Numbered from the stretch's first letter, positions 20,431-60,426 are shown. The stretch is DNA of 64,000 nt from an uncultured Pseudomonadales bacterium (GCA_964348455.1 CAYGCQ010000002.1:16121-80120), one strand, 5' to 3'. The notes: a model not told the origin generated them from the letters alone. Numbers and translations are program-made.

Positions 20431-20478
20431 TGTCATTCCGACCGAACGAAGTGAGTGGAAAAATCTCCCTCCGCCTCC
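20431..20478 (+). repeat. composite repeat, type A (tgtcattccgaccga...gagtgga.aatctccctcc), 3 nt after the LCP stop
   Basis: Same 45-48 nt element also at 50495, 60381 and 46986, with a variant at 51874. Confidence 0.6.
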
Positions 20479-20482
20479 CGCT

Positions 20483-20508
20483 TGTCATCCTCGCGAAAGC
20501 GGGGATCC
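20483..20508 (+). repeat. REP-like hairpin repeat, type B (tgtcatcctcgc-gaaa-gcggggatcc)
   Basis: Flanks conserved; stem carries a G-U compensatory change. Confidence 0.6.
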
Positions 20509-20532
20509 ATGAGCTCTTTTTTCCTTGAGTTC

Positions 20533-22509
20533 CTACCTCACCTTTATCAAGTACGTCCCACCATCTTCAAAAACTTTTACTCCTAGAGATAATATAATAT
20601 CTTCATTTACCTGATACGTAGTTCTCTCATCCTCTCCCACGATAATCCACCCGACGTTATATTCTTTAAGAAGTTCTATTATTTCTACGCTGTTAAAACC
20701 TTCATATATTCCTTTTACATCAGTCTCTCTAGCTGCCACTGGTTCGTACCCACCTCTCCAAAGCCACTCATGAACTCTCCACCCCTGAATAGTAGGCACC
20801 CCGGAAAAAACAGAAACAGCATTAAAGTTTGAGTAACTATCTCCCACCGCTTCCACCATATTTTTACCGTCATAATTTCCCCTTAGATACTTGATTGCAG
20901 CGTATCTTTCCGGCATGCTTGACTCCAACCACCTTTCTCCACTCAAGCCTGAATAGGTATTAAAATTCGCATAGAAATTTGGGAATGCCACTACCGGAAA
21001 CACCATGGTTCCAATGAATATAAATGCTACCGCAAATACGGCAAATGCTCTGTACCACAGAAAAAGTTTTCTTTCTCCATCAAACAACTTACCAAACAGT
21101 GCTCCCGCCAAAAGACCAATCATGATTGAAGCTTGATATGTAAGTTTGAACATTGTGTTTGCTCTTGGGTGATCGGGATAAATATCTTTGGCGTAGACGA
21201 CTTCAGGAATAATGATTAGTAGTAATATACAAATCGCTAATGTCCAGATTGGCAAAGATTTATCTCCTTTTTTCTCAGTCAATACCGCCAGCACACTTAC
21301 TGTTATTCCACCGGTCCACAATACCGCCAGCTCCCAAAGGGGAGTTCTTTCCGTAACCATCTTTATTCCACTCGAAATAGACTGAAAAGTTACAAACCAA
21401 GGTAAGGCCGTCAGTGCCATAAAGAGAAGCATCACTCCGGCAGATTTTAAAAGTTTGACAAACTCTCTATGATCTCTGAGTATCATAATTATTCCCGAAA
21501 CAGTTAGAAGTAGTCCATAAACAGCCACATCCCATGTATTGGTCATCATCATTACTCCAAATAAAATTCCCAGTATCATTTCATCCCATATTTTTCTCGA
21601 ATGAATCCAGTGCAAGAAAATTAAAACAAAAGCCAACACGACCGGCAAATCAATCAGGTGACCATGTAGGTCCGCAACGACGAAAGAGTACCCTGGGAAC
21701 TCGTGAATGGTGTTATGGATAAATCTGGTGGCGTCTGCGTACCAGTAACCCATCAATCCTTTATGATTTAAAAAATACCAAATTACATGGGTATTTCCTG
21801 CCAACACCGTGGCGAATGCTCCGGTTAGTCCTCCAATCATGCCGGACATGTATTTCTTTGTTCCGCTCAAGAAGTATGAAATTGAAAAAGAAATAGAAAG
21901 TGATAGACCGGCTATAAAGGCTAGCATCATGTTATACCCTACGGCCGGGTCGACGCCAAAGTATCGGATAACAATGCTCGCCCAGTAATGCCCAAAAGAA
22001 TAATAGTTTATCGACTTGCCTGCTTGCCACATATCTGCCGCCGGGAGTGTTGGAGACATCAGATATCGGTTTACAAACCCAAAGTCCATAAATTTTTCCA
22101 ATGAGTCAATGTTTGGTAAAAATCCCCTGATATAAGCGATACCAAAAAGACCAACAAAAAATAAATACTCTTCGATGACGATAATTTTAAGAGTAGTTCT
22201 GGAAACGCTAATACTTTTCAATCCGCTTTTAAAGATAATTCCTAAATTTAAAATAATTACACCAGTCGTAGCCAAAATCAAACCCTGGTTTGTGTTGGCA
22301 GCTACACCCAAATTTGCCAGTTCCCAGATGACTAGTCCCGACATCATTGTAGTCAATAGTCTGGAAAGTGGGTAACCATTATCCGGAAGGTTGTGAAACA
22401 ATTTTTTTGTCAAAGGAAAGCTAATAATCTGTAAAAGAAAACTAATCAGATAGACTCTCATTACCAGCGCAATATCAGAGTTAAACATGGTTTTTAAAGC
22501 TTTTAGCAA
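20533..22509 (-). CDS. large polytopic membrane protein, GT-C / DUF2298 (Chlor_Arch_YYY)-like putative glycosyltransferase with a C-terminal extracytoplasmic domain
   Basis: 658 aa, more than 12 TM helices, then a ~170-aa soluble C-terminal domain. FPGYSFVVADLHGHLIDLP resembles the DUF2298 conserved block. Assignment from memory, not searched. Confidence 0.35.
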   Translation of the reverse strand: MLKALKTMFNSDIALVMRVYLISFLLQIISFPLTKKLFHNLPDNGYPLSRLLTTMMSGLVIWELANLGVAANTNQGLILATTGVIILNLGIIFKSGLKSISVSRTTLKIIVIEEYLFFVGLFGIAYIRGFLPNIDSLEKFMDFGFVNRYLMSPTLPAADMWQAGKSINYYSFGHYWASIVIRYFGVDPAVGYNMMLAFIAGLSLSISFSISYFLSGTKKYMSGMIGGLTGAFATVLAGNTHVIWYFLNHKGLMGYWYADATRFIHNTIHEFPGYSFVVADLHGHLIDLPVVLAFVLIFLHWIHSRKIWDEMILGILFGVMMMTNTWDVAVYGLLLTVSGIIMILRDHREFVKLLKSAGVMLLFMALTALPWFVTFQSISSGIKMVTERTPLWELAVLWTGGITVSVLAVLTEKKGDKSLPIWTLAICILLLIIIPEVVYAKDIYPDHPRANTMFKLTYQASIMIGLLAGALFGKLFDGERKLFLWYRAFAVFAVAFIFIGTMVFPVVAFPNFYANFNTYSGLSGERWLESSMPERYAAIKYLRGNYDGKNMVEAVGDSYSNFNAVSVFSGVPTIQGWRVHEWLWRGGYEPVAARETDVKGIYEGFNSVEIIELLKEYNVGWIIVGEDERTTYQVNEDIILSLGVKVFEDGGTYLIKVR

Positions 22510-23779
22510 TTATTTCTGCTACCTCTCGACCCATTTTCACCGCATAGTTTGTCCCTCTATCAAAGGGGTACACCATGCTCATATTCGCCAAGTAGACGTT
22601 ATCAGTAATTTTTTGACTCGGTATATGCTTAGAATAGTTTACAGGGAATACAGGTTGAGCGAAAGGCTTTCGGAATAAGTATGAGTTCTTAATTAATTTT
22701 TTGTCAAAGTTATTGTTAATTTTTTTTATAAAAGGTAAGTACAACTTGAGTAGCTCTACTTTGGTCATATTCAATTGAGCATTATCATCAGGTAAATAGT
22801 TTCCAAGGTAGAGCAATCTATTATTCCCATACATTTTTTTATCAATCATGTTCGTATGTTCTACTGCTACCAAAAATGGAAAATTATTCTCCAAAATATT
22901 TAGCCAATACCCCGATAGTACTTTTCTGGATATCTCCAAAATAAGTGTTTGGCCCCATAGATAATTTAGTTTGGGGAACTTCAGTCCCTTAATAAGCTTT
23001 TCGGCAATTGGCGCAGGCGTCGTAACCACTACGGCATCAAACTCCTCGCCGTTAACAACAATTTTTTTGTTGGAACTCTTATTATCAAGCAATTTGTCAT
23101 CCTCGCGAATGCTGGGATCCACAGTCTTAATTTTCTTGACTACAGTGTTCAACCTTATCTCTCCACCATTCTTTTCAATAAATGTTTCCAGTTTCTCTAC
23201 AAACTCATCAAACCCACCCTCAAAGTAGCCGAGATTCTTTGTTCTTTTTGCTACTCTACTCCAAAACCAAGCTAAATTTACCACATCTACATAAGGTCCG
23301 AACTTGGCTGAGAGTAGTTTTTCCCAAATTAACTCATATCCTTCTCGACCTATTAATCGTGGAAGTGCCTCTACTGCTTTGTATCTTTCCAAGAACAGAC
23401 CATTTGGAATAATCTTTAGCACAAATAGCCCAACACCCATTCTTAGCCTTGACCATAGCGAGAGCTGGGAAAATCTTAAAAGTGAAAGGGGGGAGTCAAG
23501 TCGTACCTCTTTACTATTAAGAAAGCTGGAAGTTATCGGGTTTTTTATTAAAATCTTCGCATTCACTTTTTTCGCAAGGGAAAAAATATCCTTATCATTA
23601 GTAAAAATGTGATGATAGAAAACTTCTAAGTTCCACTTCCATTTTCCAGAATTAAATCCCCGTGCAAGACCTCCTGCTTTTTTGTCTGATTCGAATACAA
23701 CTGAGGAGATATTGTTGTCGGCTAAGTAAGCCGAGCAACAAAGTCCGGTGATGCCTCCACCAATTATCGCAACTCTCAT
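22481..23779 (-). CDS. FAD-dependent flavoenzyme, UDP-galactopyranose mutase (Glf)-like
   Basis: N-terminal Rossmann VAIIGGGITG...E.....GGLAR; YHHIFTNDKDIF matches the UGM GAHIFHTNDKYIW block. Overlaps the downstream membrane protein by 29 nt. Confidence 0.45.
   Translation of the reverse strand: MRVAIIGGGITGLCCSAYLADNNISSVVFESDKKAGGLARGFNSGKWKWNLEVFYHHIFTNDKDIFSLAKKVNAKILIKNPITSSFLNSKEVRLDSPLSLLRFSQLSLWSRLRMGVGLFVLKIIPNGLFLERYKAVEALPRLIGREGYELIWEKLLSAKFGPYVDVVNLAWFWSRVAKRTKNLGYFEGGFDEFVEKLETFIEKNGGEIRLNTVVKKIKTVDPSIREDDKLLDNKSSNKKIVVNGEEFDAVVVTTPAPIAEKLIKGLKFPKLNYLWGQTLILEISRKVLSGYWLNILENNFPFLVAVEHTNMIDKKMYGNNRLLYLGNYLPDDNAQLNMTKVELLKLYLPFIKKINNNFDKKLIKNSYLFRKPFAQPVFPVNYSKHIPSQKITDNVYLANMSMVYPFDRGTNYAVKMGREVAEIIAKSFKNHV
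23095..23120 (+). repeat. REP-like type B element embedded in frame inside the Glf-like CDS (encodes ...VDPSIREDDK... on the minus strand)
   Basis: tgtcatcctcgcgaatgctgggatcc with both family flanks. Confidence 0.5.
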
Positions 23780-23785
23780 CTTTCT

Positions 23786-25198
23786 TTATAGAGCTAAGAG
23801 TATTCCTATGATAGCTAGCATGAGTCCTCCGCCAAATGCGGCTATACCGGGGAAGTCTAAGATTCCAGTCTCAGGAAGTACTTCTCGTTGAGCTACAGCA
23901 TCTGTGGGAGCTACTGTTCCTCCGTCAACGATCTCATCTGTGGGAGCTACTGTTCCTCCGTCAACGATCTCGTCCGTTGGCGCAGCCGTAATCTCGTCCG
24001 TTGGTGCAGCCGTAATCTCATCAGTTGGAGCTGTTGTTGGGCAAACACAGGAACCTGCATCCAAACAGGCTGCTTTTCTACAGGTTTCTGTTCCGGTGTC
24101 ACAAGTTAGACCTGTGGTGCATTCGGAGTCGTCAGTGCATGACTCATTACAAGCAACTACGGACTTGACTGCAAGATCTTTGTCAGCTGTCTTTACGGTA
24201 TCGCCATATGAAAGTTCACTTGTATTTGTAATCACAGTCCCATTCACTGCCGCGTTTGAAACTTTGACCCTAAAAGTAAGCGTCTTTGACGCTCCTACAG
24301 CTAAAGTGATTCCAGAACAGGTAACTTTGTAGTTTGAGTTTGAAAAAGTACAGTCAGTGGTAGTATCTACAAATGTTAACAGATCTTGGTTCTCACCATC
24401 CAATGTATCTGAAACGGTTACATTTGTGGCTGGAGCAGTGCCATCATTTTTAATTACTAAAGCGTATATAAAAGTTTGGTTACGAGAAACTGTTGTGATG
24501 TCGGTTGTGGAACCTTCTTTAAAAGCTTTTTTAGTAATAGACACATCTACCACTTGGCATACAGCAGTTGCAGCACACTGTTTAGTAGTTGCTACTCCGC
24601 ACGAATCCGTACAAGTAGTGATCACCGATGCTGCCTGACCACAAGTAGTAGGACAATCGGGGGAACAAGTTACTTCAGCAGTAGCTACACAAATTGCAGT
24701 TGCAGACACTGAACAGGCCGCGGAAGTTTCGAAACAGATAGTACTGCCATCGGCTTTTTTGCATCTACCGTCGGTTTCGTCGCAGGTAAGTCCAGTAGCA
24801 CACCCGGAGGTTGAAGTACAAACTCCACATTCTGAGGGTTTTGTCGGAGGAGTGGGAGTTGTGGTTGGTGCGGTTGGACATTTAGTCATATCCTTCGTCC
24901 ACGCACCTCCTACGCTAGGGCAACACCAATTTTCATTTCCACAAACCTCTACTCGTCCGGTAGTGGTACAGACGGAATCGCTGGAAGTGCCATCAGACTC
25001 AGGAGGTGTACAGCTTTGTAAGAGGTTCGGTGTCGTTGGGTTCGGACAATGCTCCTCGCAGGTAGCAGCTCTGGAACCTGTTGGGACTATTCCCTGACCT
25101 GTACTAATTCTGTATGAAACAAAGATTGCTGCAGCTGCAATAAGAGCAATAAGAGCTATTGTTATGATTGCGACTATGTTTTTTCTTTTGTTATTCAT
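23786..25198 (-). CDS. Cys-rich, Thr-rich cell-surface protein with a DUF11-like repeat domain and a C-terminal LPETG sorting signal
   Basis: N-terminal TM; many Cys; C-terminal TAAPTDEI repeats; ends VLPETGILDFPGIAAFGGGLMLAIIGILLAL. Confidence 0.7.
   Translation of the reverse strand: MNNKRKNIVAIITIALIALIAAAAIFVSYRISTGQGIVPTGSRAATCEEHCPNPTTPNLLQSCTPPESDGTSSDSVCTTTGRVEVCGNENWCCPSVGGAWTKDMTKCPTAPTTTPTPPTKPSECGVCTSTSGCATGLTCDETDGRCKKADGSTICFETSAACSVSATAICVATAEVTCSPDCPTTCGQAASVITTCTDSCGVATTKQCAATAVCQVVDVSITKKAFKEGSTTDITTVSRNQTFIYALVIKNDGTAPATNVTVSDTLDGENQDLLTFVDTTTDCTFSNSNYKVTCSGITLAVGASKTLTFRVKVSNAAVNGTVITNTSELSYGDTVKTADKDLAVKSVVACNESCTDDSECTTGLTCDTGTETCRKAACLDAGSCVCPTTAPTDEITAAPTDEITAAPTDEIVDGGTVAPTDEIVDGGTVAPTDAVAQREVLPETGILDFPGIAAFGGGLMLAIIGILLAL
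23899..24018. repeat. intragenic tandem repeats: 36-bp unit x2 (perfect) then 24-bp unit x2 (1 mismatch), encoding the TDEITAAP / TDEIVDGGTVAP stalk repeats
   Basis: Direct repeats read from sequence, directly upstream (in gene sense) of the LPETG signal. Confidence 0.8.
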
Positions 25199-25210
25199 TT
25201 TTAATTTCGT

Positions 25211-27190
25211 TTAGTTAGCTGTGGCAACACAAACCCCTAAAGCATCAGGAGTTTTTGAGGATACTTTGCATTCAAACCCAGTCGGGCACTTAATTCCAGC
25301 GACTCCTGCACAAGTTGTTTGAATTGAAGCGGTAGAGGGCGCAGTGCTTACATAAGCCTCGAATTTATATGTTCCAGTTTTTGAAATAGTGTAGTCGTAG
25401 TATGAAGTTAGTTTGGTGGTTGTGTTTAATAGTCCGGAAGCAACAACTTCTACAGTGGAACTTGTTCCCTGAGTAATTCTAAACTTAGCTCTTAAATTCG
25501 CATTGTTTGATCGAACCGCTAATCTAATCTTGTCGTTAATTTTTATTTTGTTTCTTTGGTCCAGGGTCATCGGTGTGGTGTTAAATGTTCCATCAGTTTT
25601 TTGTGAGAACAAGCTAATCTCCATACAAGCACCTGGATTAGCTACGACACACACTTTGGTGCCAGGAACTGTTCTTTTTGTTCCGCAGTTGCTAGTTTGA
25701 TTTACTGTGGCAGTGGTACAAACTGTATTTGCATTAGGTGTCCAACTGGAAACTGTACAGCCTCCCCCTCCACCTTTTGTAGGAGTAGCAGTTACCCCAC
25801 CACCTCCTGTAGAACCGCCGCCACAACCCGAAGTTGACACTACGCATTTGCCACCTGAAATAGCTTCACCTTGGTGACAGCAAAATCTATCTTGGGTTGT
25901 AGCTGTTGCGGTGCTTTTACATGTAAATGCACCAGAGGTATAAGTTGTAGAACAGCAAAGTCCTGGGCTACATACGTCCGTGTACCCTCCGGCGGGTTTG
26001 CATGCTTTAGAGGTAGCACTGTATTCAGGATTTGCTGTAGAACAGCAAAGAGTTGGTGTGCCTACTGAGTTATTGCACGTAGATGCCCCAGCGGTTCCAG
26101 CCGGCAAATTACAATCAACACCCGCTGGACAAGTAGATTTAGACGGATTAGCCACACAAACAGCCCTCGCATTACATCCATCATATGTACCATTTAAACA
26201 ACATGTTAGTTTCATCGTTCCAGGCAAGCTAGAGTTATTAGGAGTACTGCTAAGAGGTGTTGTGCAACTTACTGTTTTTGTATCTTTTCCATATTCACAT
26301 GTTCCGGAAGGAGTTTGAACACATGTTCCTCCGATACACCTATCAGGACTAGTGCACCCAGAATCATTACCACAAATCGTATTGCGACACACTCCACCAA
26401 TAAATTTTTGATCCGCTTCACAACTTTCTGCGGGTGGTGGTGCTGCTGTGGCTGTCCCAGTGAAACACTTTCCACTTAACAAAGGTACTCCAGGGCTACA
26501 ACAGTACTGAGGGGTTGTTGAAGTTGATGAGGAGTAGCACTGTGTGCCTCCGGACTCTGCTCCAAAAGAACATTGTAAATTATTGCCAATAGAGTTACAT
26601 AACTTTTTAGCTGTTGACGGTGTCGGTGTTTTTGCGGGAGTGCCTGTAGCTTGTACACCTCCACAGCCAGATACTTCTGGGTGTCCAATACAACTTGTTT
26701 TTGTAGCATTACAGCTGAAACAGGGGCCGGGGCAGTTTGAAGAAGTACATGTGTATCCTGTTCCGTATCCAGTCGGTGTGGGGGCAATTGGTTTACAAAC
26801 ACCATTAACGCATTTCTCTTTTCCTGCTTTGCACTGAGAGGGGTTGTTTGTACAACCGCCTGCTGCAAACGGCTGAAGTGGTCCGGTCAAGGCTATTCCA
26901 CCTCTGGAAGCCAGCTGATTAGAAACATAATAAGCAGCTCCAGCTACACCCACTACTAGTAGTAAGGCAATCATTCCTAATGCAATTTGTTTAAATTTAT
27001 TTTTCGGTTTCTTCTCTGGCCATTGGATCTCAGGGGTAGTAGGTGATGTTGGTGTTATCGTGGTCGTGGTGGTGGAATCTGGAGTAGTTGTAGTGGTCGT
27101 GGTTAGAGGAGCTCCCAGCGGTTCTTGATTCGGCATCGGAGGATTAAATGGCTGACCGGAAGTTTGATTCGAAAGATTTTGTTCGTCCAT
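25211..27190 (-). CDS. very Cys-rich surface protein (about 60 Cys), N-terminal TM anchor, Thr-rich; paralog of 28244..30208; no C-terminal sorting signal
   Basis: Shares the N-terminal module AGAAYYVSNQL.SR.GIA.TGPLQPFAAGGCTNNP.QCKAGKE.CVNGVCKPIAPTPTGYGTGYTC with the paralog. Confidence 0.65.
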   Translation of the reverse strand: MDEQNLSNQTSGQPFNPPMPNQEPLGAPLTTTTTTTPDSTTTTTITPTSPTTPEIQWPEKKPKNKFKQIALGMIALLLVVGVAGAAYYVSNQLASRGGIALTGPLQPFAAGGCTNNPSQCKAGKEKCVNGVCKPIAPTPTGYGTGYTCTSSNCPGPCFSCNATKTSCIGHPEVSGCGGVQATGTPAKTPTPSTAKKLCNSIGNNLQCSFGAESGGTQCYSSSTSTTPQYCCSPGVPLLSGKCFTGTATAAPPPAESCEADQKFIGGVCRNTICGNDSGCTSPDRCIGGTCVQTPSGTCEYGKDTKTVSCTTPLSSTPNNSSLPGTMKLTCCLNGTYDGCNARAVCVANPSKSTCPAGVDCNLPAGTAGASTCNNSVGTPTLCCSTANPEYSATSKACKPAGGYTDVCSPGLCCSTTYTSGAFTCKSTATATTQDRFCCHQGEAISGGKCVVSTSGCGGGSTGGGGVTATPTKGGGGGCTVSSWTPNANTVCTTATVNQTSNCGTKRTVPGTKVCVVANPGACMEISLFSQKTDGTFNTTPMTLDQRNKIKINDKIRLAVRSNNANLRAKFRITQGTSSTVEVVASGLLNTTTKLTSYYDYTISKTGTYKFEAYVSTAPSTASIQTTCAGVAGIKCPTGFECKVSSKTPDALGVCVATAN

Positions 27191-28243: not shown

Positions 28244-30208
28244 CTAAAGCGCAAGTAATATCCCCACAATTGTAAGTATAAGTCCTCCTCCAAAGGCGGC
28301 CACTCCGGCGAAGTCAAAAATTCCTGCTTCGGGTAATGCTGTTGGCCTAGGAGCTCTCGTTGCTGGGACTCTGGTTGGAACAGAAGCTGTTCGTTCTGTT
28401 GGTTTCGGGCACACACAGGAGGTTATATTTGAACATTCATTGTTTCTGCACTTATTCGTTTCCGTGTCGCATAACAGCCCATCTCCACATTCAGTATCAG
28501 AAGTGCAGGTGTGGTTACAACTCACTATGGTGCTGACTAATAAATCCTTTTCTGCTTTAAGAATTTTTCCCAAATAAGTTACAGTTGCAATATTTTTAAT
28601 TACTGTACCATTGACTACCGCGTCCGAAACGGTTGATCTAAAAGAAAACTCCTTTGTTTCACCCGGATCAAGTGAGGTGTTGCAGACAACCATTTTCTCC
28701 GGCGACGAGTACTCACAGACCGCCTCTTTATCAAGGAAGGTCAGTTTATCTTGGTTTAATCCTGTTAGGGGGTCGGTGATTTTTACCCCATCTGCCTTAT
28801 CAGCCGCATTGTTTGATACTTGAATCGTATATACGAATGTTTGATTTTTTGAGACAGTATCAATTTCCTGAGTCAAAGAGTAGTTTCCTGATGAGTTATC
28901 CGCTTCATCTTGATATGCCTTTTTGTCTATCGAAACATTTGATTCACAGGACTGTGTATTACATGCCTTTTCGGAATTTCCTCCGTCAACCTCATCACAG
29001 TTGAGAGCTCCACCACAACTTCCTTCAGTACAAGTTCTGGTTTGAGTTCCACCTCCACAAGACTTAGTACAATCACTCCAGTCAGACCAAATAGGTGGAG
29101 TTAATACACAAGTTGTCGCGGCCGTAAAATTTCCTTTACATCTATTGTCTTGTCCAAAAACAAGATTTGCCGCCGGTAGCATCAAGTATCTAGCTACGAT
29201 GGTGTAACTTCCTGCCGCCGGTATATTGTAAATATATTCAAATTTTCCGGTTGTCGAATTTAAAATTGTCGGTCCCCAATTTGCATCGTTAATTTTTATG
29301 TCTACTTGGGTAGTATTTTTCGCTGTCACTGCAAATTTTATACGTGAACCTGGCTTTGCTTCAGCTGATAGTTCAGCAGAAGTAAGATTTTTCCAAGACC
29401 CATCTGTTTGTTGAATGGAATAGTCAATGGCGGTACATGAGACAACTGGCGTTGGTGTTGGTGTGGGAGTTTTTGTCGGCGAAGGGGTAGTTGTAGTCTT
29501 CGTTGGTGTCGGTGTAGATGTCTTAGTTGGCTTAGGTGTTGTAGTACTGCCTCCGGAAGAGACACACCCATTACCGCTTGGATTACATACGTATCCCACT
29601 GCACAGCAAGTCATTGCTTTTCCTGTCATATTGATACACCAAGATCTGCCTTGATTCCCACAAGAAATTCGAGTATCGCTTCTACACTCATAACCGGTAC
29701 AAGCATCACCACCTAGACAGTGACAGTCTGCAGCTGGGCATGTTGACCCACAATGGTTAATTACATTTCCATTTGCATCTCTCGGGGCTCCTTCATCGAT
29801 TGGTAGTGCGATGTTTTGTCCTGCTATCCCAGTGCTTGAAACACCCGCACAGCCGAGGGAAATACAACTTGTTTTAGCGGCATTACACTTGAAACACGGT
29901 GATGGACAGTTCGTGGTTGTGCATGTATACCCTGTTCCATAACCTGTGGGTGTAGGGGCAATAGGTTTGCAAACACCATTCACACATGTTTCTTTTCCTG
30001 CTTTACACTGAGCTGGATTGTTTGTACAACCACCAGCAGCAAAAGGCTGAAGAGGTCCAGTTGGGGCTATTCCTGCTCTGGAAGACAACTGATTAGAAAC
30101 ATAATAAGCCGCACCGGCAATTACCACCATCAAAACAGTCGCAATTATGCCTAATAGCAATCGTCGCCTTCGGACTTTATTTTGTTTCAATGACTCTTCT
30201 CCGCTCAT
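28244..30208 (-). CDS. Cys-rich surface protein with N-terminal TM, PT-rich linker, TSP1-like motif, DUF11-like domain and a C-terminal LPEAG sorting signal
   Basis: WSDWSDCTKSCGGGTQTRTC motif; C-terminus ALPEAGIFDFAGVAAFGGGLILTIVGILLAL. Confidence 0.7.
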   Translation of the reverse strand: MSGEESLKQNKVRRRRLLLGIIATVLMVVIAGAAYYVSNQLSSRAGIAPTGPLQPFAAGGCTNNPAQCKAGKETCVNGVCKPIAPTPTGYGTGYTCTTTNCPSPCFKCNAAKTSCISLGCAGVSSTGIAGQNIALPIDEGAPRDANGNVINHCGSTCPAADCHCLGGDACTGYECRSDTRISCGNQGRSWCINMTGKAMTCCAVGYVCNPSGNGCVSSGGSTTTPKPTKTSTPTPTKTTTTPSPTKTPTPTPTPVVSCTAIDYSIQQTDGSWKNLTSAELSAEAKPGSRIKFAVTAKNTTQVDIKINDANWGPTILNSTTGKFEYIYNIPAAGSYTIVARYLMLPAANLVFGQDNRCKGNFTAATTCVLTPPIWSDWSDCTKSCGGGTQTRTCTEGSCGGALNCDEVDGGNSEKACNTQSCESNVSIDKKAYQDEADNSSGNYSLTQEIDTVSKNQTFVYTIQVSNNAADKADGVKITDPLTGLNQDKLTFLDKEAVCEYSSPEKMVVCNTSLDPGETKEFSFRSTVSDAVVNGTVIKNIATVTYLGKILKAEKDLLVSTIVSCNHTCTSDTECGDGLLCDTETNKCRNNECSNITSCVCPKPTERTASVPTRVPATRAPRPTALPEAGIFDFAGVAAFGGGLILTIVGILLAL

Positions 30209-40449: not shown

Positions 40450-40475
40450 TGTCATTCCTGCGAAGGCAGGAATCC
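40450..40475 (+). repeat. REP-like hairpin repeat, type B (tgtcattcctgc-gaag-gcaggaatcc), 5 nt after the grpE stop
   Basis: Perfect 8-bp stem, conserved flanks. Confidence 0.6.
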
Positions 40476-42435: not shown

Positions 42436-42452
42436 TCTATAGTCATTGTTTG

Positions 42453-42472
42453 GCCGCCTTCGGGCGGCCATT
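42453..42472 (+). promoter_or_regulatory. stable RNA hairpin with a UUCG tetraloop (ggccgcc-ttcg-ggcggcc) in the dnaK-dnaJ spacer; no T-run
   Basis: Perfect 7-bp GC stem read from sequence. Confidence 0.45.
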
Positions 42473-42490
42473 GCAATCTGGATAATAAAT

Positions 42491-46185: not shown

Positions 46186-47160
46186 ATGGAAGACAAAACC
46201 CAGTTTATATCAGCCAAAAAAATCTTCGATTCCGCATCCTCATTTATTGTTGCTCTACCCCCTGACCCCTCTTTAGACATTGTTTCTTCCGGCCTTAGTC
46301 TCCATCTAGCCCTAATTGCTTCCGGGAAAAAATCTCAAATTGGATGTGGCACTCCAGTTCACATTGATCCCAAAATTATCGGTGCTCAGGAAATAGCGGA
46401 CAGTATTGGTGCAAAGAATCTAATTATCTCCTTTGATTATCACGAAGATGATCTCGAAAAAGTAGACTATGATGTTCGTCCTGATGGAAAATTTTATCTA
46501 ATGGTCAAGCCAAAATCTGGCGCTCCAGTTCCAGATGTCAGTAATGTAAAGTATTCCTACTCCGGGGCTCAAGCAGATTTGGTCATAACTTTAGGCATTA
46601 ATTCTCTGGAGGAACTAGGAAAGATATACGCCGACGAAAAAAACTTTTTAGATGAAGGTAAGATTTTAAGTTTAAACATTACCCCCTGGCCTGTCCAGTT
46701 CACCAAAAACATTCTCCACCAAACATCCACCTGCTTTTCAGAGCTTGTAGCGGAACTAATTGAGAAAGTGGATTTAAAAATGTCAGGTGATGCCGCCAGA
46801 AACTTATTACAGTTCATATACGAAGAAACAAAAAATCTTACGAGCCCAAAGATGACAGCCGGAACCTTTTCCTCAATCGCTTATCTAATGAGAAATGGAG
46901 CTAAATTACCAAGCCAGCAGACTTATACTCCCAGGTTTGCTCAGCCAACCTTTTTTGAAGCCCCTCACGCACCGCTCAGCACCTCTGTCATTCCGACCGA
47001 AGTGGAGGAATCTCAAACCACCAATATAGGGGACGAAGAAAATATTCCCATGCCACAGGAAGAGAATAAGCCTTACGTCATACCTCCTTCCAAGCTAACC
47101 GAACAGCCGGTGCCAAACGACTGGACCAAGCCCAAGATCTTCCGCGCAGGCGACCTGTAG
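46186..47160 (+). CDS. degenerate DHH/NrnA-like protein (DHH motif not conserved), with a low-complexity C-terminal tail that reads through a repeat element
   Basis: N-terminal SFIVALPPDPSLDIVSSGLSLHLAL...GK resembles the NrnA architecture but has no H..PD.D. Confidence 0.35.
   Translation: MEDKTQFISAKKIFDSASSFIVALPPDPSLDIVSSGLSLHLALIASGKKSQIGCGTPVHIDPKIIGAQEIADSIGAKNLIISFDYHEDDLEKVDYDVRPDGKFYLMVKPKSGAPVPDVSNVKYSYSGAQADLVITLGINSLEELGKIYADEKNFLDEGKILSLNITPWPVQFTKNILHQTSTCFSELVAELIEKVDLKMSGDAARNLLQFIYEETKNLTSPKMTAGTFSSIAYLMRNGAKLPSQQTYTPRFAQPTFFEAPHAPLSTSVIPTEVEESQTTNIGDEENIPMPQEENKPYVIPPSKLTEQPVPNDWTKPKIFRAGDL
46986..47022 (+). repeat. type A repeat (short variant) embedded in frame in the 3' region of 46186..47160
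   Basis: tgtcattccgaccgaagtggaggaatctcaaaccacc translates as SVIPTEVEESQTT. Confidence 0.55.
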
Positions 47161-50494: not shown

Positions 50495-50540
50495 CGTCAT
50501 TCCGACCGAGCAATACGAGTGGAGGAATCTCCCTCCACCC
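50495..50540 (+). repeat. type A repeat directly 3' of pnp
   Basis: cgtcattccgaccgagcaatacgagtggaggaatctccctccaccc. Confidence 0.6.
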
Positions 50541-50543
50541 AAT

Positions 50544-50569
50544 AAAAAATCCCCAAATGGGGATTTTTT
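50544..50569. terminator. bidirectional Rho-independent terminator (aaaaaatcccc-aaat-ggggatttttt)
   Basis: Perfect stem flanked by A6 and T6. Confidence 0.7.
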
Positions 50570-50642
50570 ATTATCAAACCTATATCTGCTAAAATCCTAC
50601 TAGATAAACATCATTATCGTGTCTTTATAAGAAAAAAATAAT

Positions 50643-50667
50643 TCCCTACAAAAGTGGGGATTTTTTT
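50643..50667 (+). terminator. second terminator-like hairpin (tccctac-aaaa-gtgggga + T7) in the pnp-lon spacer
   Basis: Stem with one G-U and a T-run. Confidence 0.4.
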
Positions 50668-50794
50668 AAAGCTCTGGGATAACCCCTTATCAATCTCAAT
50701 TGTGTTTATTGGTAGAGCCGTCTTGGAATGGTATTGCAGGGGAGGAAGTAACCTGACGTGGCAATCTCTCACCATCTATATATAATGGTAACTG

Positions 50795-51873: not shown

Positions 51874-52282
51874 CGTCATTGCGAATCTCGGTACTCCGAG
51901 CTGTGGCAATCTCCCTCCACCTCATTCACACCAACGTTCCATGCAAATCATCCCATTTTGGATTCATCCTTTCAACAAATCATTCCTCCTCTTCCTCGAC
52001 CAAGATTTTATTTGCTTTTCCCTCTGAATTGCTTCAATCATTACGTCGAAAATTCGTAGTAAACAAGTTTGTTGAGTGAATATTCTTTTGTAAATCCTTC
52101 CGAAACCTTAATCTTATGTTCCCAAGATCTTCTTAGTAAATCCTTTGTTACTCCTACATAAATAGTAGTGTTGTATTCGTTAGTCATAATATAAATACTT
52201 GGAGTTTTAACCATCGATTTATTTAATTTATCTTTCGTGGATTGAGATTGCCACGTCGTAAATACACTCCTCGCAATGACGG
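51874..52282. mobile_element. about 410-bp unit bounded by imperfect inverted repeats (cgtcattgcga...gtggcaatctc; 51874-51921 and 52239-52282, related to the type A repeat) enclosing a frameshifted GIY-YIG gene
   Basis: Inverted repeats read directly from sequence; inferred MITE-like or small element. Confidence 0.3.
51964..52214 (-). pseudogene. GIY-YIG nuclease superfamily (COG2827-like, about 83 aa) gene disrupted by a 1-nt frameshift near 52041
   Basis: Frame 1: MVKTPSIYIMTNEYNTTIYVGVTKDLLRRSWEHK...KLVYYEFST*. Shifted frame continues ...MIEAIQREKQIKSWSRKRRNDLLKG* (GIY, YIG, R, E and REKQIK motifs present). Confidence 0.6.
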
Positions 52283-52286
52283 TATT

Positions 52287-53681
52287 TTATTTTTCTAATA
52301 ACCCAAGCATCCTTTTTTCAACAGCTTCCGCTCTCTTTTTGTTTTTCCCAAAAATTATGTATGACAGATATCCATCATGAAGTAAGTTTGATGAACAAAT
52401 TACCAGTCCCTCTTTTGATTTTTTTGAGAACAAAATCGGCGCCATCAGTTTATAGAGCTTTTTAAATGTCGTTTTTTTCTTCCCGGGAAGAGTGTGCATG
52501 TTTTCGCAAAGTACATATGATTTTTTCATGAAGTCTCTTCCTGCAAGCTCTATTGCTGTGTTATACATGTGAGTTCCTCCAGTCACTCTCACGTTTGATT
52601 CATTTACAAAGATCTGTCCTTTTTTGCCAGCGATAAAATCAATATCAAAGTAACCACGGTACCCATCTTCAGAATAATGTTCACCAATTAAATACCCAAT
52701 GTCAGTGATTCTCGAAGCCACTCTTTTTGGTAATGTTTCCTCCCCGATTTCGATTCCAGCGAACACCCCTTGCTTGTCTACCCGCATGCCGCAGTAATAC
52801 AGAAATTTTACTTCGCCATTTTTTTTAATTAAAAATTCGGAGTTAGGGAAACCTCCTCCAATCCGAGGGTTTGGCTTGACTAGTGACTCCACCACAATCG
52901 GAAATTTTTCCCAATATGCGTCCTTTCTCAGTATTTCAATTATTTTTTTCTCACATTCCGCAAATTTTTTAGGCAAGTCTCCTTTATGAAAAATCAAAAC
53001 TCCAGCCCCGGAGTGACCCTTATTCGTTTTTATAACAACTCCACCCTCCTTGATGAATTTATTTGCCGCAATCCCCGCGGTATCGATAATCCCGGAGCTT
53101 ATCACTCCACTTGGCATTTTCAAATCGGCTCTTATTGCACCATTTATTTGGGTCAGTTGACGAATACCAGACTTGCTTCCGTAAAAGTTAACAGTCCAGG
53201 CATCGGACTCTTCCGGCGCAAGCGGAGTTCTAACCTCTACCCCTCGATCTCTCAAGGTCTTTACTAGATATAGAAACTCCGGGGAAGTTGAATAGGAGGT
53301 AATTGAAAGCCTCTTATACTTCTTCTTCATTTTTACAAGTCTGTCCATGATATCCTTGTCCTCCAAAATATCATCGCAGAGTTTGCCTGTGTGTTTTTTG
53401 GTAACCAAAATTTCCAGATCTCTCACTTCACATAGTTTCTTAAAATAATCTACAAACAGGGGATCAATCGGCTTTGGAACAATAAAGGTAAATTCAAATT
53501 CCTCAGCCATCGAAAACAGATCTTTATCTGTCAAATTGGCATTTTCATCAATCTCCCATTTTTGAAGTTTCTTATCCCCATAGGCTTCGATAAAAGGCCA
53601 AACATCCTCAGAGCAATTAAATATTCTTATTACCCTTTCTCTTTTCTTTCCTCCAGGCTTATCTGCTTTTGTCTTTTTCAT
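52287..53681 (-). CDS. ATP-grasp fold ligase-like protein (N-terminal pre-ATP-grasp region + ATP-grasp core)
   Basis: ...TNKGHSGAGVLIF..., PIVVESLV, GYFDIDFIAGKKGQIFVNESNVR resemble ATP-grasp B- and C-loop blocks. Confidence 0.45.
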   Translation of the reverse strand: MKKTKADKPGGKKRERVIRIFNCSEDVWPFIEAYGDKKLQKWEIDENANLTDKDLFSMAEEFEFTFIVPKPIDPLFVDYFKKLCEVRDLEILVTKKHTGKLCDDILEDKDIMDRLVKMKKKYKRLSITSYSTSPEFLYLVKTLRDRGVEVRTPLAPEESDAWTVNFYGSKSGIRQLTQINGAIRADLKMPSGVISSGIIDTAGIAANKFIKEGGVVIKTNKGHSGAGVLIFHKGDLPKKFAECEKKIIEILRKDAYWEKFPIVVESLVKPNPRIGGGFPNSEFLIKKNGEVKFLYYCGMRVDKQGVFAGIEIGEETLPKRVASRITDIGYLIGEHYSEDGYRGYFDIDFIAGKKGQIFVNESNVRVTGGTHMYNTAIELAGRDFMKKSYVLCENMHTLPGKKKTTFKKLYKLMAPILFSKKSKEGLVICSSNLLHDGYLSYIIFGKNKKRAEAVEKRMLGLLEK

Positions 53682-54722: not shown

Positions 54723-55113
54723 TTTATCTCCTCTTGAATTATAGGTTTAACGTGCACGAAACTGAGCTATATTATCCTATAGCTAATTCAAGATTGCTGG
54801 ACAAACAGCGGACTTGATATCTCAGATCTCAATGCACTATTTAAGCATTTTGAGGAAGAAAAAGTAATAGCCTTAGATCTTGCCAAAAAGCTTAGAGAAA
54901 ATATCATCGAGAAGTTGCAAAAACCATAGTCAGTCTTCTTTTGTGCCTAAAACAGATTCATGCTATAATAACCGTCAGTCCACGGAAACGTTGTCGAAGT
55001 GATTTGTGAGAATTGTAGAATCTGTTAGATTTTCGATCCCAACCCTTAGAAACTTATCCCGTAAATTAGGATTTTGGCGTGTTTCCTCGCCTAAAGCTAA
55101 ATGTATTGGTCAT

Positions 55114-55140
55114 TGTCATTCCCGACTTGATCAGGAATCT
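55114..55140 (+). repeat. REP-like hairpin repeat, type B (tgtcattcccgac-ttga-tcaggaatct)
   Basis: One stem mismatch relative to the copy at 60428. Confidence 0.55.
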
Positions 55141-55198
55141 ATATAGATGACCCAGCATTCAGTTACAATATTATTAGGAAAATTAATTACAAAAGATT

Positions 55199-56851: not shown

Positions 56852-56852
56852 C

Positions 56853-57581
56853 ATGCCGGAATTGCCTCCTTTTGACGGCACCGAGTATCCCGAACAACAT
56901 GCTCTTCAAGCATCCCTTGAGCGTCAAGTCGGAATAGACCCTTTCTTTGGAACTGATGAAATGGTTACTCAAAAACTTAAAAGCTTTAAAGCTTTGGTTG
57001 AGAAATGCAACGACATAGACGTTCAAACCAGTGATCTTAGGCATGTAAAACTTCAGGATATTTTGAATGAATTTGATAATCTTAAACAAAGTATTGAGAA
57101 ATATCTCGGTATAGGCCTTAGTCTTGATCAAGATGATTATGTCTTTGCTGGAGATCATTCCGGACAGGCAGGCGAAATGTTTTCTAGGCTTGCCGCCTTT
57201 GGGGTTATTAAAGATTTACCATCCATTGAAAATTCTGAGGATAAAACCTTGAAAGACAGTATAGATCTCTCAAGCCCAAATGAAATTACGTGTAAATATG
57301 TTTTTCCACTTTTTGATTCCACCTCAGGCCAAACACTCCACAAGATTTGTGAATTAAAAATTAATCGATTCAAAACCCAAGAAGAAATCAACCAAAAATA
57401 TTCAGAGTTTCAATCCGAGGCAGAAAAACTTCTACAGAAACACAGTGAAGAGTTGGCTGATTTTTATAAAAAATACGGAAAAATAAGTAGAAAAACGGTT
57501 TCAGGAAAGCCGAGTGAGAGAAATCGCAAAAGAAAGTTCTACCGGATTGATCAAGGAACTAACAAGTCTGAATCTGTATAG
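56853..57581 (+). CDS. hypothetical protein (acidic, coiled-coil rich, basic C-terminal tail)
   Basis: 242-aa ORF, 1-nt gap after rnj. Confidence 0.4.
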   Translation: MPELPPFDGTEYPEQHALQASLERQVGIDPFFGTDEMVTQKLKSFKALVEKCNDIDVQTSDLRHVKLQDILNEFDNLKQSIEKYLGIGLSLDQDDYVFAGDHSGQAGEMFSRLAAFGVIKDLPSIENSEDKTLKDSIDLSSPNEITCKYVFPLFDSTSGQTLHKICELKINRFKTQEEINQKYSEFQSEAEKLLQKHSEELADFYKKYGKISRKTVSGKPSERNRKRKFYRIDQGTNKSESV

Positions 57582-57609
57582 GTTAGATTGAGTTATACTA
57601 AATATATCT

Positions 57610-59754
57610 ATGGCTCGCAAAAAAGGTCGCCGCTCTAAACCATATAAAGTCAGTCTAAAAAAAGACACGATGAACTCTATTCTGGCAGTCGTCTTGATGG
57701 GTATCGGTGGTCTCATTGCCATTTCTTTTTCGCAACAAGGCGATGCTCTCATGAAGATTAATGAGATCGGCCAGCAGTTTCTAGGCTGGCCTCTGCTCTT
57801 CCTGCCATTTATCTTTATAGTTGGTGGTCTAATCATTACCCACGTAAAACTCCCCATTGCCTCCACCAATGTACTTCTGGGCAGTGTCATTACAATGGTC
57901 TCTCTCGAGGGTTTATTCGGGGCCGGCGCTGTAGGAATTGGACTCAAAGACTCTCTCACCTCCCTCATCTCTTTACCAGGAGCCATTCTCTTTTATTTTG
58001 TCGGGGTTGTCATTGGACTCTTCATTCTCTTTGAAACTTCCATCGAAGATTTATTAGTATTAGTCCAAACTCTCTTTGGTGGAGTATCTGGTGCTCTGGG
58101 AAAAATAAAAAGCTTGCCCGTCAAAGGAGGTGCTTCCTCTTTTTTGAGCAAATCCGGCACTGTCAAGATTACGGGGGGGGAACAGTTGTTGAACCCTGCT
58201 CCTATTAATACAGATGAATCTGCTCCGGTAAAAATAGTCCACAAGGAACTCCATGCAAGTCGTTCTGCTCAAACTGCTATCGAAACCAAAAAACTCCCGG
58301 ACGGTGCCACTTCAGGTATTTGGCATTTCCCTCCTGTTAGTTTACTTTCAGATCAGAAGATCGGAAAGGCTGATCGGGGAGATATCAAAAAAAATATCGA
58401 GGTTATCCAAAACACGCTGGGGTCATTTGGGATTCAATGTAAGGTTACTGAGGTTCACCAGGGTCCGGCTGTCACTCAGTATGCCCTTGCCATTACTGCC
58501 GGAACCAAATTGTCTAAGATAAGCGCTCTTCAGTCCGACCTAGCCTTGGCGCTTGCTGCTCCTCAAGGTCAAATTCGCATTGAAGCTCCCATCCCCGGCC
58601 GAGATCTTGTGGGCGTAGAAATCCCCAATCGTTCTTTGGAATTTGTATCTCTTCGAGACATGCTTACCGACAAGGCTATGCAAGAAAGTCGTTCTAAAAC
58701 TGCGATATCGCTGGGGCTTGATGTTTCCGGTCAACCGGTAATCGCCGATATCAACAAGATGCCTCACTTACTGATAGCTGGTACTACTGGTTCTGGAAAA
58801 TCAGTTTTGATAAATGCCATAATTTCCTCAATACTTTTCAGAGCTTCACCCGAAGAGGTTAAGTTCATCATGGTCGATCCTAAGCGTGTTGAACTTACTC
58901 CATATAACGACATTCCACATCTTCTTACCCCTGTCATTACTGATGTTTCCAAAGTAGTAAATGCTCTCAAGTGGGCCGCCGCCGAAATGGATCGTCGATA
59001 TCGACTTTTTGAAGAAATGTCAGTTAAAAATATTGCCGGATATAACGAGCTCAGTGGATTTCAAGCCATGCCATATATCATTATCATCGTCGATGAAATG
59101 GCAGACATTATGATGTCCAAAAACGCCGGAGAAGTCGAGGAGAACATTGTCCGTTTGGCTCAAATGGCTCGAGCTGTTGGTATTCATCTTGTTTTGGCAA
59201 CTCAGAGGCCTTCCGTAAATGTTTTAACTGGAATTATTAAAGCCAACATTCCTGCACGTATCTCTTTCCAAGTAACTTCCATGATAGATTCTCGTGTAAT
59301 TATTGATACTCCGGGTGCCGAGAAACTTCTTGGAAAAGGGGATATGCTTTACATTCCTCCTGACACTGCTAAGCCAAAACGTATTCAGGGGGCTTTCGTT
59401 TCGGACAAAGAGATCAAAAATCTTATTGATTATATTAAAGGTTCAGGTGTCACAGCTCAGCTCGATCCTACCATTACTAAAGATAAGGGGAAAAGTACCA
59501 TCGGCACCACAGGTCAAAACATGGGAGATGTCGATGAGAAATTTGAAGAGGCCGCGCAACTTTGTATTGCCGAAGGAAAAGGTTCTGCTTCACTACTTCA
59601 ACGCCGTCTCGAAGTCGGTTATGCTCGTGCGGCAAGGATTCTTGATCAGCTTGAGGAGGCAGGAGTATTAGCTCGTGCAGAAGGCAACAAGCCTCGTGAA
59701 GTCATTGTCAGTAGTTTGAATGAAGTCTTTCCTTCCAGCGAAGAAAATTCTTAA
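57610..59754 (+). CDS. ftsK: DNA translocase FtsK/SpoIIIE
   Basis: N-terminal 4 TM, motor domain LLIAGTTGSGKSVLINAII, C-terminal gamma wHTH (LLQRRLEVGYARAARILDQLEEAGVL). Confidence 0.9.
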   Translation: MARKKGRRSKPYKVSLKKDTMNSILAVVLMGIGGLIAISFSQQGDALMKINEIGQQFLGWPLLFLPFIFIVGGLIITHVKLPIASTNVLLGSVITMVSLEGLFGAGAVGIGLKDSLTSLISLPGAILFYFVGVVIGLFILFETSIEDLLVLVQTLFGGVSGALGKIKSLPVKGGASSFLSKSGTVKITGGEQLLNPAPINTDESAPVKIVHKELHASRSAQTAIETKKLPDGATSGIWHFPPVSLLSDQKIGKADRGDIKKNIEVIQNTLGSFGIQCKVTEVHQGPAVTQYALAITAGTKLSKISALQSDLALALAAPQGQIRIEAPIPGRDLVGVEIPNRSLEFVSLRDMLTDKAMQESRSKTAISLGLDVSGQPVIADINKMPHLLIAGTTGSGKSVLINAIISSILFRASPEEVKFIMVDPKRVELTPYNDIPHLLTPVITDVSKVVNALKWAAAEMDRRYRLFEEMSVKNIAGYNELSGFQAMPYIIIIVDEMADIMMSKNAGEVEENIVRLAQMARAVGIHLVLATQRPSVNVLTGIIKANIPARISFQVTSMIDSRVIIDTPGAEKLLGKGDMLYIPPDTAKPKRIQGAFVSDKEIKNLIDYIKGSGVTAQLDPTITKDKGKSTIGTTGQNMGDVDEKFEEAAQLCIAEGKGSASLLQRRLEVGYARAARILDQLEEAGVLARAEGNKPREVIVSSLNEVFPSSEENS

Positions 59755-59757
59755 ACC

Positions 59758-60375
59758 ATGAAGACCGTTGGTCAAATAATCAAATCGGCTAGGCAAAAAC
59801 GCAGTCTTAGCGTAGATCAGCTTTCTTCGCTTACAAAAATAGATTCCAAGTATATTGCCGCGCTCGAACTTGATCATTACTCAGATCTCCCTTCAGAAAC
59901 ATTTGCCAAGGGTTTTATTAGAAATCTCAGTCTAAGGCTCGATCTAAACCCGAATGAACTCATCGCTATTTTTAGAAGGGATTTTCGACAACCGGACAGA
60001 GTCGGTCCAAAAACAATACATAGAAAAACTTTTTCCGGATTTCCACCCCAGTCTCTCCCCTTTATTTTTGGCGGTTTGGTCTTCGTAGTTTATTTAGTTT
60101 TTCAGTTTAGAGCCATTCTTACTCCTCCAAAACTCGAAATAACTCGGCCATTAAATGGCGCGGTTCTTGTATCCCCAATCGAAATTGAAGGGGATACGGC
60201 TATAGATGCCAATATATATATAGGTGATGATACCCAGGTTAAGCCTGACACTGAGGGTCATTTCTTGGCCAGGATAAATATACCTGTGGGGGAGACGGTG
60301 CTGGAGATAAAATCCACCAATCGATTTGGTAGAACGACGGATAAAAATATCTCGGTCACCATAATATCCAAATAA
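59758..60375 (+). CDS. rodZ: RodZ-like cytoskeleton protein (N-terminal XRE-type HTH, TM, C-terminal domain)
   Basis: GQIIKSARQKRSLSVDQLSSLTKIDSKYIAALE HTH, then a TM helix. Confidence 0.55.
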   Translation: MKTVGQIIKSARQKRSLSVDQLSSLTKIDSKYIAALELDHYSDLPSETFAKGFIRNLSLRLDLNPNELIAIFRRDFRQPDRVGPKTIHRKTFSGFPPQSLPFIFGGLVFVVYLVFQFRAILTPPKLEITRPLNGAVLVSPIEIEGDTAIDANIYIGDDTQVKPDTEGHFLARINIPVGETVLEIKSTNRFGRTTDKNISVTIISK

Positions 60376-60380
60376 CCGTT

Positions 60381-60426
60381 TGTCATTCCGACCGAATGTA
60401 GTGAGTGGAGGAATCTCACACCACCC
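60381..60426 (+). repeat. type A repeat 6 nt after the rodZ-like stop
   Basis: tgtcattccgaccgaatgtagtgagtggaggaatctcacaccaccc. Confidence 0.6.

Follow-up and report, generated by a model that had tools for sequence, protein, structure and literature searches.

What are the short hairpin repeats that sit a few nucleotides behind stop codons in a bacterial genome, and how did they get there? The question is raised by a stretch of 64,000 nt (GCA_964348455.1 CAYGCQ010000002.1:16121-80120), which we call the window and from whose first letter all coordinates are counted. Judged by the names of homologues, its host lies close to Candidatus Collierbacteria, which belongs to the Microgenomates within the Candidate Phyla Radiation (CPR). 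The window carries a family of at least 17 copies of an oriented hairpin repeat, 15 of them intergenic and two within coding sequences. The original prediction, made from the sequence alone, described some of these copies as a composite element (type A), twice followed by a second hairpin (type B), and proposed a role at the RNA level in 3' untranslated regions (3'-UTRs) rather than insertion of miniature inverted-repeat transposable elements (MITEs). We consider it likely that the repeats are DNA-level, MITE-like elements of the NTS/SRM class: the terminal repeats of a decayed cassette around an ssn nuclease gene, together with derivatives of these repeats.

The cassette spans 406 bp (51875-52280). 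It consists of a repeat on the plus strand, an ssn gene on the minus strand and a repeat on the minus strand, and the GTCAT ends of both repeats face outward. The left terminal inverted repeat (51875-51921, plus strand) is a GCAAT-stem variant with a CCTCCACC tail, 6 nt 3' of the stop codon of an AAA/Lon-lid gene (51868). The right one (52236-52280, minus strand) is a GCAAT-stem copy with the tail CTCAATCCACG, 6 nt 3' of the stop codon of the minus-strand gene 52287-53681. The gene between these inverted copies (51926-52214, minus strand) was located by tblastn. The search was first seeded with E. coli YhbQ, which was then replaced by real hits, namely the GIY-YIG genes found beside type A copies in other genomes.

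The gene is a pseudogene for a single-domain GIY-YIG nuclease with two 1-nt deletions. An intact ortholog (P0121, 96 aa, 90% identical) occupies the same site in relatives from related groundwater metagenomes (L204-L213). Compared with this ortholog, GAATTTTTTGATG has become GAA-TTTTCGACG and GATTTGGTTG has become GATTT-GTTG. The broken ssn sequence is identical in five independent assemblies; hence the break is that of a pseudogene and not an assembly error. A sequencing error behind the frameshift is ruled out by the same five assemblies together with the second deletion.

When one T is restored in a T-run, the gene yields an 83-aa product that matches PF01541 (E=7.8e-15, residues 6-77). Y8, Y19 and E66 of the repaired product have the spacing of Y6, Y17 and E64, the residues that were mutated in N. 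meningitidis SsnA. The single domain, the Tyr/Tyr/Glu catalytic set and a size that agrees with the ~90-100 aa of the Ssn family (cd10448) suggest an Ssn-type nuclease. An NCBIfam search with the window GIY-YIG sequence gave a weak, sub-threshold hit, and a PDB sequence search with the repaired Ssn gave marginal GIY-YIG hits (E at least 0.17).

The architecture of the cassette also tells us what type A is. Both ends of the cassette carry the CCTCCACC tail, which separates the hairpin from the stop codon of ssn. Taken with its tail, type A is therefore a complete terminal inverted repeat. What the original prediction had described as composite, a hairpin joined to a CCTCCACC tail, is the full terminal repeat of the ssn cassette. 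By analogy with the relation of REP and REPIN sequences to RAYT genes, the remaining copies would be solo, tandem or inverted-doublet derivatives of such repeats.

Copies in the window were searched for as GTCAT...ATC(T/C) with a terminal stem. The layout of the family is GTC, followed by a palindrome that starts with AT and ends with AT, followed by C, with the full form 5'-(Y)GTC-[palindrome]-C(T/C). The stem comes in compensating versions: ATTCC/GGAAT, ATTGC/GCAAT, ATCCC/GGGAT and ATTCT/AGAAT. GTC-AT...AT-C is kept in 16 of the 17 window copies, the exception being a degenerate copy at 50731. Type B belongs with type A and the GCAAT variant of type A to a single superfamily of oriented hairpins. 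The 47-nt type A units cluster at 81-85% identity (repeat family D3), and the 14-mer GTCATTCCGACCGA occurs exactly four times in the window.

To which known class does this superfamily belong? Chenal et al. (Nat Commun 2025, PMC11893778) report on the NTS of Neisseria, CGTCATTCCCGCGMAVGCGGGAATCYRG, together with a wider set of 'Ssn-related motifs' (SRM). Ssn proteins are small single-domain GIY-YIG nucleases that bind the NTS/SRM hairpin solely as single-stranded DNA (ssDNA) and cut a few nt 5' of it; SsnA has no activity on RNA, on double-stranded DNA or on the reverse strand, and does not bind RNA (PMC11893778). Cleavage is sensitive to the three bases on the 5' side of the palindrome and binding to the C directly on its 3' side; the NTS loop tolerates extensions, and an ssn gene usually has the motif at either side (PMC11893778). 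The role of Ssn/SRM outside Neisseria is stated to be unknown, and mobility is raised as a hypothesis only (PMC11893778). A literature search on sequence strings found this one relevant paper, and a follow-up search found no later work on Ssn.

The window repeats agree with this class in several respects. In 16 of the 17 copies the bases critical for cleavage (GTC) and for binding (C) are in place. The long forms in the window carry extra loop bases. A hairpin of 20-50 nt is found in type B by DNA folding (z -4.2 to -4.75) and in type A by stem covariation. A repeat-flanked ssn gene lies in the window itself (repeats at 51875 and 52280) and is intact in L204-L213. The assignment of the window repeats to the SRM class, and to the terminal repeats of a GIY-YIG ssn cassette, is well supported. 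The published search pattern, HGTCWYN(0-2)YYVSBRHN(0-5)WNVSBRGN(0-2)RNCYNB, matches only 20483-20510 and 23095-23122 in the window (0.1 matches in shuffles). After it had matched only these two B-type copies, a hairpin-anchored detector was used, which gave 14 hits in the window versus 1.8 +/- 1.3 in shuffles.

Type A is not confined to the CPR. With the exact pattern GTCATTCCGACCGA-N0-12-GTGGAGGAATCT the type A core is found in more than 118 loci of many phyla, among them Patescibacteria, Bacteroidota, Verrucomicrobiota, Bacillota, Spirochaetota, Armatimonadota and Pseudomonadota. The commonest form is the 27-nt short version. For further analysis we used a sample of 118 loci from other genomes with 271 SRM-like copies, in which open reading frames (ORFs) of at least 150 aa were called mechanically. 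Of the 118 loci, which span at most 8 kb, 6 carry an ssn gene, and there inverted repeats surround a reverse-oriented ssn. In L052, L091, L114, L079 and L055, all from other phyla, an SRM is followed by ssn in reverse orientation and then by a reverse SRM, and type A stands immediately upstream of ssn.

These genomes also supply the evidence that type A forms a hairpin. In a set of 40 distinct 27-mers from other genomes, pair 6-23 is TA in 14, CG in 12 and GC in 12; pair 7-22 is CG in 24 and TA in 14; and pair 11-18 is GC in 26 and CG in 14. The covarying pairs flank the G.A/A.G positions. The constancy of G.A/A.G is uninformative alone, because the search pattern requires the motif, and the same holds for GTCA...TC(T/C), which all 40 sequences keep. 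The covariation supports the type A hairpin, which folding energy does not.

Do the repeats behave like inserted sequences? The window can be compared with 80 loci of Collierbacteria-type relatives, in which the gene order pnp, AAA and a convergent P464 gene is conserved; these loci represent a single syntenic region and not independent sites. At the AAA/P464 site, the convergent stop codons are 0 nt apart in L137 and 2 nt apart in L142, L144 and L146. The same site holds one solo repeat with a 6-nt leader in L133, arrays in L126, L130 and L161, an intact ssn cassette with a 96-aa ssn in L204-L213, and unrelated inserts in others. Empty, solo-occupied and cassette-occupied versions of one site thus point to insertion behaviour. 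After the pnp stop, relatives carry copies with GGAAT, GCAAT or AGGAT stems 6-8 nt away or a truncated copy, and some have no element and an ordinary terminator instead. No target-site duplication was seen.

A copy inside a coding sequence varies among relatives as well. The short type A copy at 46987-47022 (plus strand) has the 27-nt form GTCATTCCGACCGAAGTGGAGGAATCT (46987-47013) and the tail AAACCACC. It lies in frame within ORF 46186-47160 and is translated as VIPTEVEES. Homologues of this ORF have the VIPTEVEES insert in some lineages and lack it in others; other homologues carry SLRGGTPTWQS, which is a GCAAT-type repeat read in a different frame. Repeat-derived peptides thus vary among homologues, which suggests that repeats are tolerated as in-frame inserts. 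The ORF itself encodes a conserved CPR protein of unknown function whose C-terminal linker is hypervariable (residues ~260-300), and the linker peptides across homologues include VIPTEVEES, VILSE..., YVIPGL... and SLRGGTPTWQS.

The view that the repeats are something other than MITE insertions finds no support in their place at the ends of the ssn cassette, in the empty and occupied sites, or in the copies within coding sequences and 5' regions. What, then, of their position behind stop codons? The four type A copies of the original prediction lie where it had placed them, with GTCAT starting at 20432, 50496, 51875 and 60382, and Pfam backs the names of the upstream genes (LytR_cpsA_psr, PNPase domains, AAA+Lon_lid and HTH_25). 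The copy at 20432-20475 (plus strand; GTCATTCCGACCGA-N9-GTGGAAAAATCTC with the tail CCTCCGCC and a degenerate right arm, GGAAA) is a long copy 3 nt 3' of the LCP stop, which ends at 20428. The long copy at 50496-50539 (plus strand) has the CCTCCACC tail and lies 8 nt 3' of the pnp stop (50487), upstream of pnp's own terminator-like hairpin (50541-50575). The long copy at 60382-60425 (plus strand, tail ACACCACC) lies 6 nt 3' of the stop of a RodZ-like (HTH_25) gene (60375). With the left cassette repeat, the gaps from stop to GTCAT are 3, 8, 6 and 6 nt (LCP, pnp, AAA/Lon-lid, RodZ-like), and all four stops are TAA. The A+B tandems are likewise confirmed: the type B hairpin GTCATCCTCGCGAAAGCGGGGATCC follows at 20484-20508 (plus strand) and fits the published degenerate SRM pattern, and GTCATTCCCGACTTGATCGGGAATCT follows at 60429-60454 (plus strand; repeat family D4, DNA fold z -4.75).

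The placement rule holds for more than these four copies. The 5' end lies at most 10 nt after a co-oriented stop in 7 of the 15 intergenic window copies. When position and orientation were drawn at random within the actual intergenic DNA, the mean was 0.59 and the maximum 5, and none of 20,000 trials reached 7. The rule extends to other genomes. Among the 118 loci, the GTCAT end lies at most 10 nt after a co-oriented stop in 21 copies versus 2 in the opposite arrangement, in which the other end of the element lies beside a convergent stop codon. When stops inside the element are counted too, the numbers are 23 versus 5 within 10 nt (p ~9e-4) and 47 versus 10 within 30 nt (p ~7.5e-7). The original prediction that copies share the orientation of the upstream gene just behind its stop is borne out in both samples, and the random orientation and position that would speak against it are not what the other genomes show.

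The distance itself is not fixed. Spacers from stop to element range from 1 to 8 nt, and a fixed distance to the stop codon was rejected on these grounds. The spacers are not conserved, except for pyrimidines at -1/-2 and a depletion of G from -1 to -5. An explanation by replication strand would not account for the convergent pair 51875 (plus strand) and 52280 (minus strand).

The placement rule is partly passive. The coding fraction of the window is 0.90, with 6.2 kb of intergenic DNA; the native spacers without elements measure 0-2 nt (AAA/P464), ~17 nt (dnaK-dnaJ) and ~26 nt (LCP/DUF2298); and doublets and cassettes have their GTCAT ends outward. The spacer behind pnp, though, is 307 nt long and that behind grpE 85 nt, and still the copies lie 5-8 nt from the stop. 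These copies in long spacers, together with the bias of solo copies in larger genomes, point to an orientation-dependent factor beyond the passive model. Stop codons, intergenic location and the direction of copies with respect to genes go unmentioned in the main text of the Ssn paper (PMC11893778), so the placement rule may be new for a known class.

One could go further and suppose that SRM hairpins are inserted or retained specifically in the first few nucleotides after stops, in such a way that the strand which Ssn can cleave is the coding (non-template) one. We hold this to be unlikely. If it were so, the ssDNA laid bare at gene ends by the uncoupling of transcription and translation might serve for insertion; alternatively, the co-oriented hairpin might have been recruited to slow translation termination in the manner of REPs, or to form the 3' end of an mRNA.

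Is there any sign of a dedicated RNA element? The terminator scan around every stop-proximal copy found no hairpin with a directly adjoining U-run, for A or for B. Type B is a stable hairpin. The RNA structure prediction, which the original prediction had named as a check, gives type A a fold no better than that of shuffled sequence, with z from -0.1 to -2; at pnp z reaches -6, for which the terminator and a tail hairpin account. Rfam 15 has no hit at gathering score in the 64-kb window and four hits at E<=1, none of which lies on an element. A dedicated RNA module for 3' stability, processing or termination is thus unsupported, given the missing U-run, the weak type A fold and the missing Rfam match.

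At pnp a separate terminator hairpin follows the element (A6-stem-T6, 50541-50575). The pnp-AAA spacer holds two terminator-like hairpins, this one and another at 50643-50660. The former has A6/T6 flanks, may be bidirectional and begins 1 nt past the tail of type A. Within the pnp copy (50517-50539), a Shine-Dalgarno-like GTGGAGG in the right arm pairs perfectly over 7 bp with CCTCCAC in the tail. This hairpin competes with the Ssn-type hairpin and is degenerate in the other copies.

We can now set out how the repeats would have come to lie where they are. If they are NTS/SRM-class elements, copies would spread as DNA through an Ssn-dependent, strand-specific step on ssDNA, in which Ssn would cut the GTCAT strand only, a few nt 5' of GTCAT. 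In a genome that is 90% coding, copies would survive mainly in the tiny spacers just past stop codons. Any effect on mRNA would be a by-product. As ssn has decayed here, most copies in the genome may be relics.

Several points weigh against this explanation. The ssn gene in the window is dead. Cleavage of type A by Ssn is a prediction from sequence, and the DNA fold of type A is no better than that of shuffles (z -0.5 to +1.2), a weak hairpin by nearest-neighbour energies. GIY-YIG nucleases are not known to form the kind of covalent intermediate by which copies could be mobilised. The series of site versions could be one old insertion followed by gene conversion, and not repeated insertion. 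Insertion and purifying selection alone leave unaccounted for why solo copies are co-oriented with the upstream gene. Finally, 15 of the 17 window copies, including all type A copies, lie outside the published SRM pattern; this pattern is a search heuristic from 29 genomes and not a biochemical definition (PMC11893778).

Which alternatives could explain the same observations? If the stop proximity were purely passive, the high coding density with spacers of 0-30 nt would account for the position, and GTCAT-outward doublets and cassettes would account for the orientation. The small native spacers at AAA/P464, dnaK-dnaJ and LCP/DUF2298, the coding fraction of 0.90 and the outward ends fit this well. 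It does not predict copies 5-8 nt from the stop in the pnp and grpE spacers, nor seven stop-proximal copies where random placement in the actual intergenic DNA yields 0.6, nor the bias of the 5' end toward stops that solo copies show in larger genomes of other phyla. A purely passive origin is possible, and we lean against it. Selection for RNA-level 3'-UTR modules, which would protect mRNA 3' ends or act in processing, termination or translation termination, would explain the tight co-oriented placement directly (7 of 15 versus 0.6 expected, 21 versus 2 in other genomes). The stable type B hairpin would suit such a role, and the pnp copy lies between stop and terminator and is therefore probably transcribed. 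In E. coli, ribosome stalling and reduced expression are reported for REPs that lie less than 16 nt from a stop (ref. 17 as cited in PMC12306157), a precedent for stop-proximal hairpins.

Against selected RNA modules, every copy lacks a U-run beside the hairpin, type A folds like shuffles, and no element matches Rfam at E<=1. Some copies occupy 5' regions or, in either orientation, the interior of genes, and close relatives have no element at the same gene ends. The conservation of at least 26 exact bases across phyla and the link to ssn argue for protein recognition of DNA, and SsnA binds no RNA. We therefore judge selected RNA modules improbable; a hairpin that begins 3-8 nt behind a stop may still have side effects on the RNA or on translation. 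The last alternative, classical REP/BIME elements mobilised by a RAYT transposase of the IS200/IS605-type HUH family, shares the habit of the repeats: short oriented hairpins, tandem and inverted arrays, and a position after stops. The conserved flank is GTC...C and not the REP tetranucleotide GTAG/CTAC, and the gene between the inverted copies is GIY-YIG and not an HUH Y1 transposase (no scan of every window ORF for RAYT was made), which makes RAYT mobilisation very hard to credit. NTS/SRM-class elements that move as DNA remain the explanation that we favour.

The rest of the inventory, most of which the original prediction missed, though the copies it listed were correct as far as they went, shows the same layouts in other settings. 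Two further copies follow stops: a type B hairpin (40451-40475, plus strand) 5 nt 3' of the grpE stop (40445), and a GCAAT-like copy with a GC-rich inner hairpin (42442-42479, plus strand) 6 nt 3' of the dnaK stop (42435) and 11 nt 5' of the dnaJ ATG (42491). The second intragenic copy, of type B (23096-23120, plus strand), runs antisense within ORF 22481-23779 on the minus strand, which is amine-oxidase-like, and its translation there is VDPSIREDDK. Six window copies lie in 5' or divergent regions. A three-copy cluster occupies the divergent uvrD/tpiA intergenic region (18510-18535 on the plus strand, 18594-18570 and 18642-18610 on the minus strand), and a type B copy (55115-55140, plus strand) precedes the start of RNase J (55199) by 59 nt.

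An inverted doublet with outward GTCAT ends combines a B-like copy (62133-62158, plus strand) with a degenerate partner (62169-62196, minus strand), and L130 and L161 share it. Such REPIN-like doublets of two different SRM subtypes, with a short spacer and GTCAT ends outward, are seen at 62133-62196 in the window and in L130, L161 and L158.

What the original prediction called a partial right half at 50756-50773 is real as sequence and not a partial copy; it forms the right arm of a full, though degenerate, copy of GCAAT type (~50731-50768, plus strand), ~30 nt upstream of the AAA gene start, in which the C of GTC is lost. L140 has an intact copy at the equivalent position. In front of the AAA/Lon-lid gene (50758-50786), the right arm of this degenerate copy supplies a -35-like GTGGCA that precedes a TATAAT by 17 nt; the intact repeat of L140 stands in the same -35/TATAAT arrangement, and relatives without the repeat have TTGACG instead.

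A few features of the window have no part in this family. A direct repeat of 267 nt with 80% identity (26687-26953 and 29861-30127) lies in the minus-strand ORFs 25211-27190 and 28244-30208, which are probably paralogous genes. A tandem 36-nt repeat (23881-24032), two of whose copies are identical, lies inside ORF 23786-25198 (minus strand) and implies a 12-residue protein repeat. Sub-threshold Rfam hits to n00280, the C. difficile 'sRNA included into helicase gene', at 16786-16886 and 2768-2868 (minus strand) fall in a UvrD-like ORF and a 999-aa ORF and are probably conserved helicase coding sequence, not an RNA gene. In the 64-kb window Rfam found neither tRNA nor rRNA, nor any other curated RNA.

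What follows from the assignment? It adds a Collierbacteria-like CPR genome, ~1 Mb in size, to the range of the Ssn/SRM system. The 27-nt variant with tandem G.A is exact across many phyla, yet the published search pattern misses it. One site offers a natural series of an empty state (0-2 nt), a solo repeat, an intact cassette and a decayed cassette. The rule that the GTCAT end faces a co-oriented stop bears on the choice between strand-specific movement of ssDNA and an effect on gene expression, and if specific insertion or retention at gene ends were true, widespread Ssn/SRM systems would gain a function linked to gene ends. For annotation, the repeats yield spurious ORFs and in-frame peptides such as VIPTEVEES, SLRGGTPTWQS and VDPSIREDDK.

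How do the window repeats compare with known systems? Rickettsia palindromic elements (RPE) are tolerated as in-frame insertions in genes, as are VIPTEVEES in ORF 46186 and VDPSIREDDK in the oxidase ORF. Unlike the window repeats, RPE are ~100-150 bp long, and we know of no demonstrated link between RPE and a GIY-YIG gene. The 'peel and paste' elements IS200/IS605 resemble the window system in that subterminal hairpins are recognised on one strand of ssDNA and cleaved a few nt to one side. They differ in that the gene associated with the window repeats is not an HUH transposase, and covalent strand-transfer chemistry is not known for GIY-YIG enzymes.

The Neisseria dRS3/NIME repeats share the palindrome core ATTCC(C)...(G)GGAAT and intergenic arrays. 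For dRS3 the definition is just ATTCCC-N8-GGGAAT, whereas in type A the ATTCC/GGAAT stem is 5 bp long and its interior is mismatched. The REP, REPIN and BIME sequences of E. coli and Pseudomonas share oriented hairpins, tandem and inverted arrays, a nuclease gene flanked by repeats and a large share of copies 1-20 nt after stop codons; in contrast to REP/RAYT, the nuclease here is GIY-YIG and not HUH, and the flank is GTC/C and not GTAG.

The closest relatives are NTS/SRM and Ssn. Type A departs from NTS/SRM in its short outer stem, its tandem G.A internal motif, its variable loop and its lineage-specific tail. The host is a CPR bacterium, a group that the main text of PMC11893778 does not name, and the local ssn is a pseudogene. 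Intragenic copies make up 2 of 17 in the window versus 2% reported for N. meningitidis. In both systems a GIY-YIG gene, here of 83-96 aa, is flanked by repeats, and dispersed copies occur in many phyla. Both have GTC 5' and C 3' of the palindrome, and type B is nearly identical in layout to NTS.

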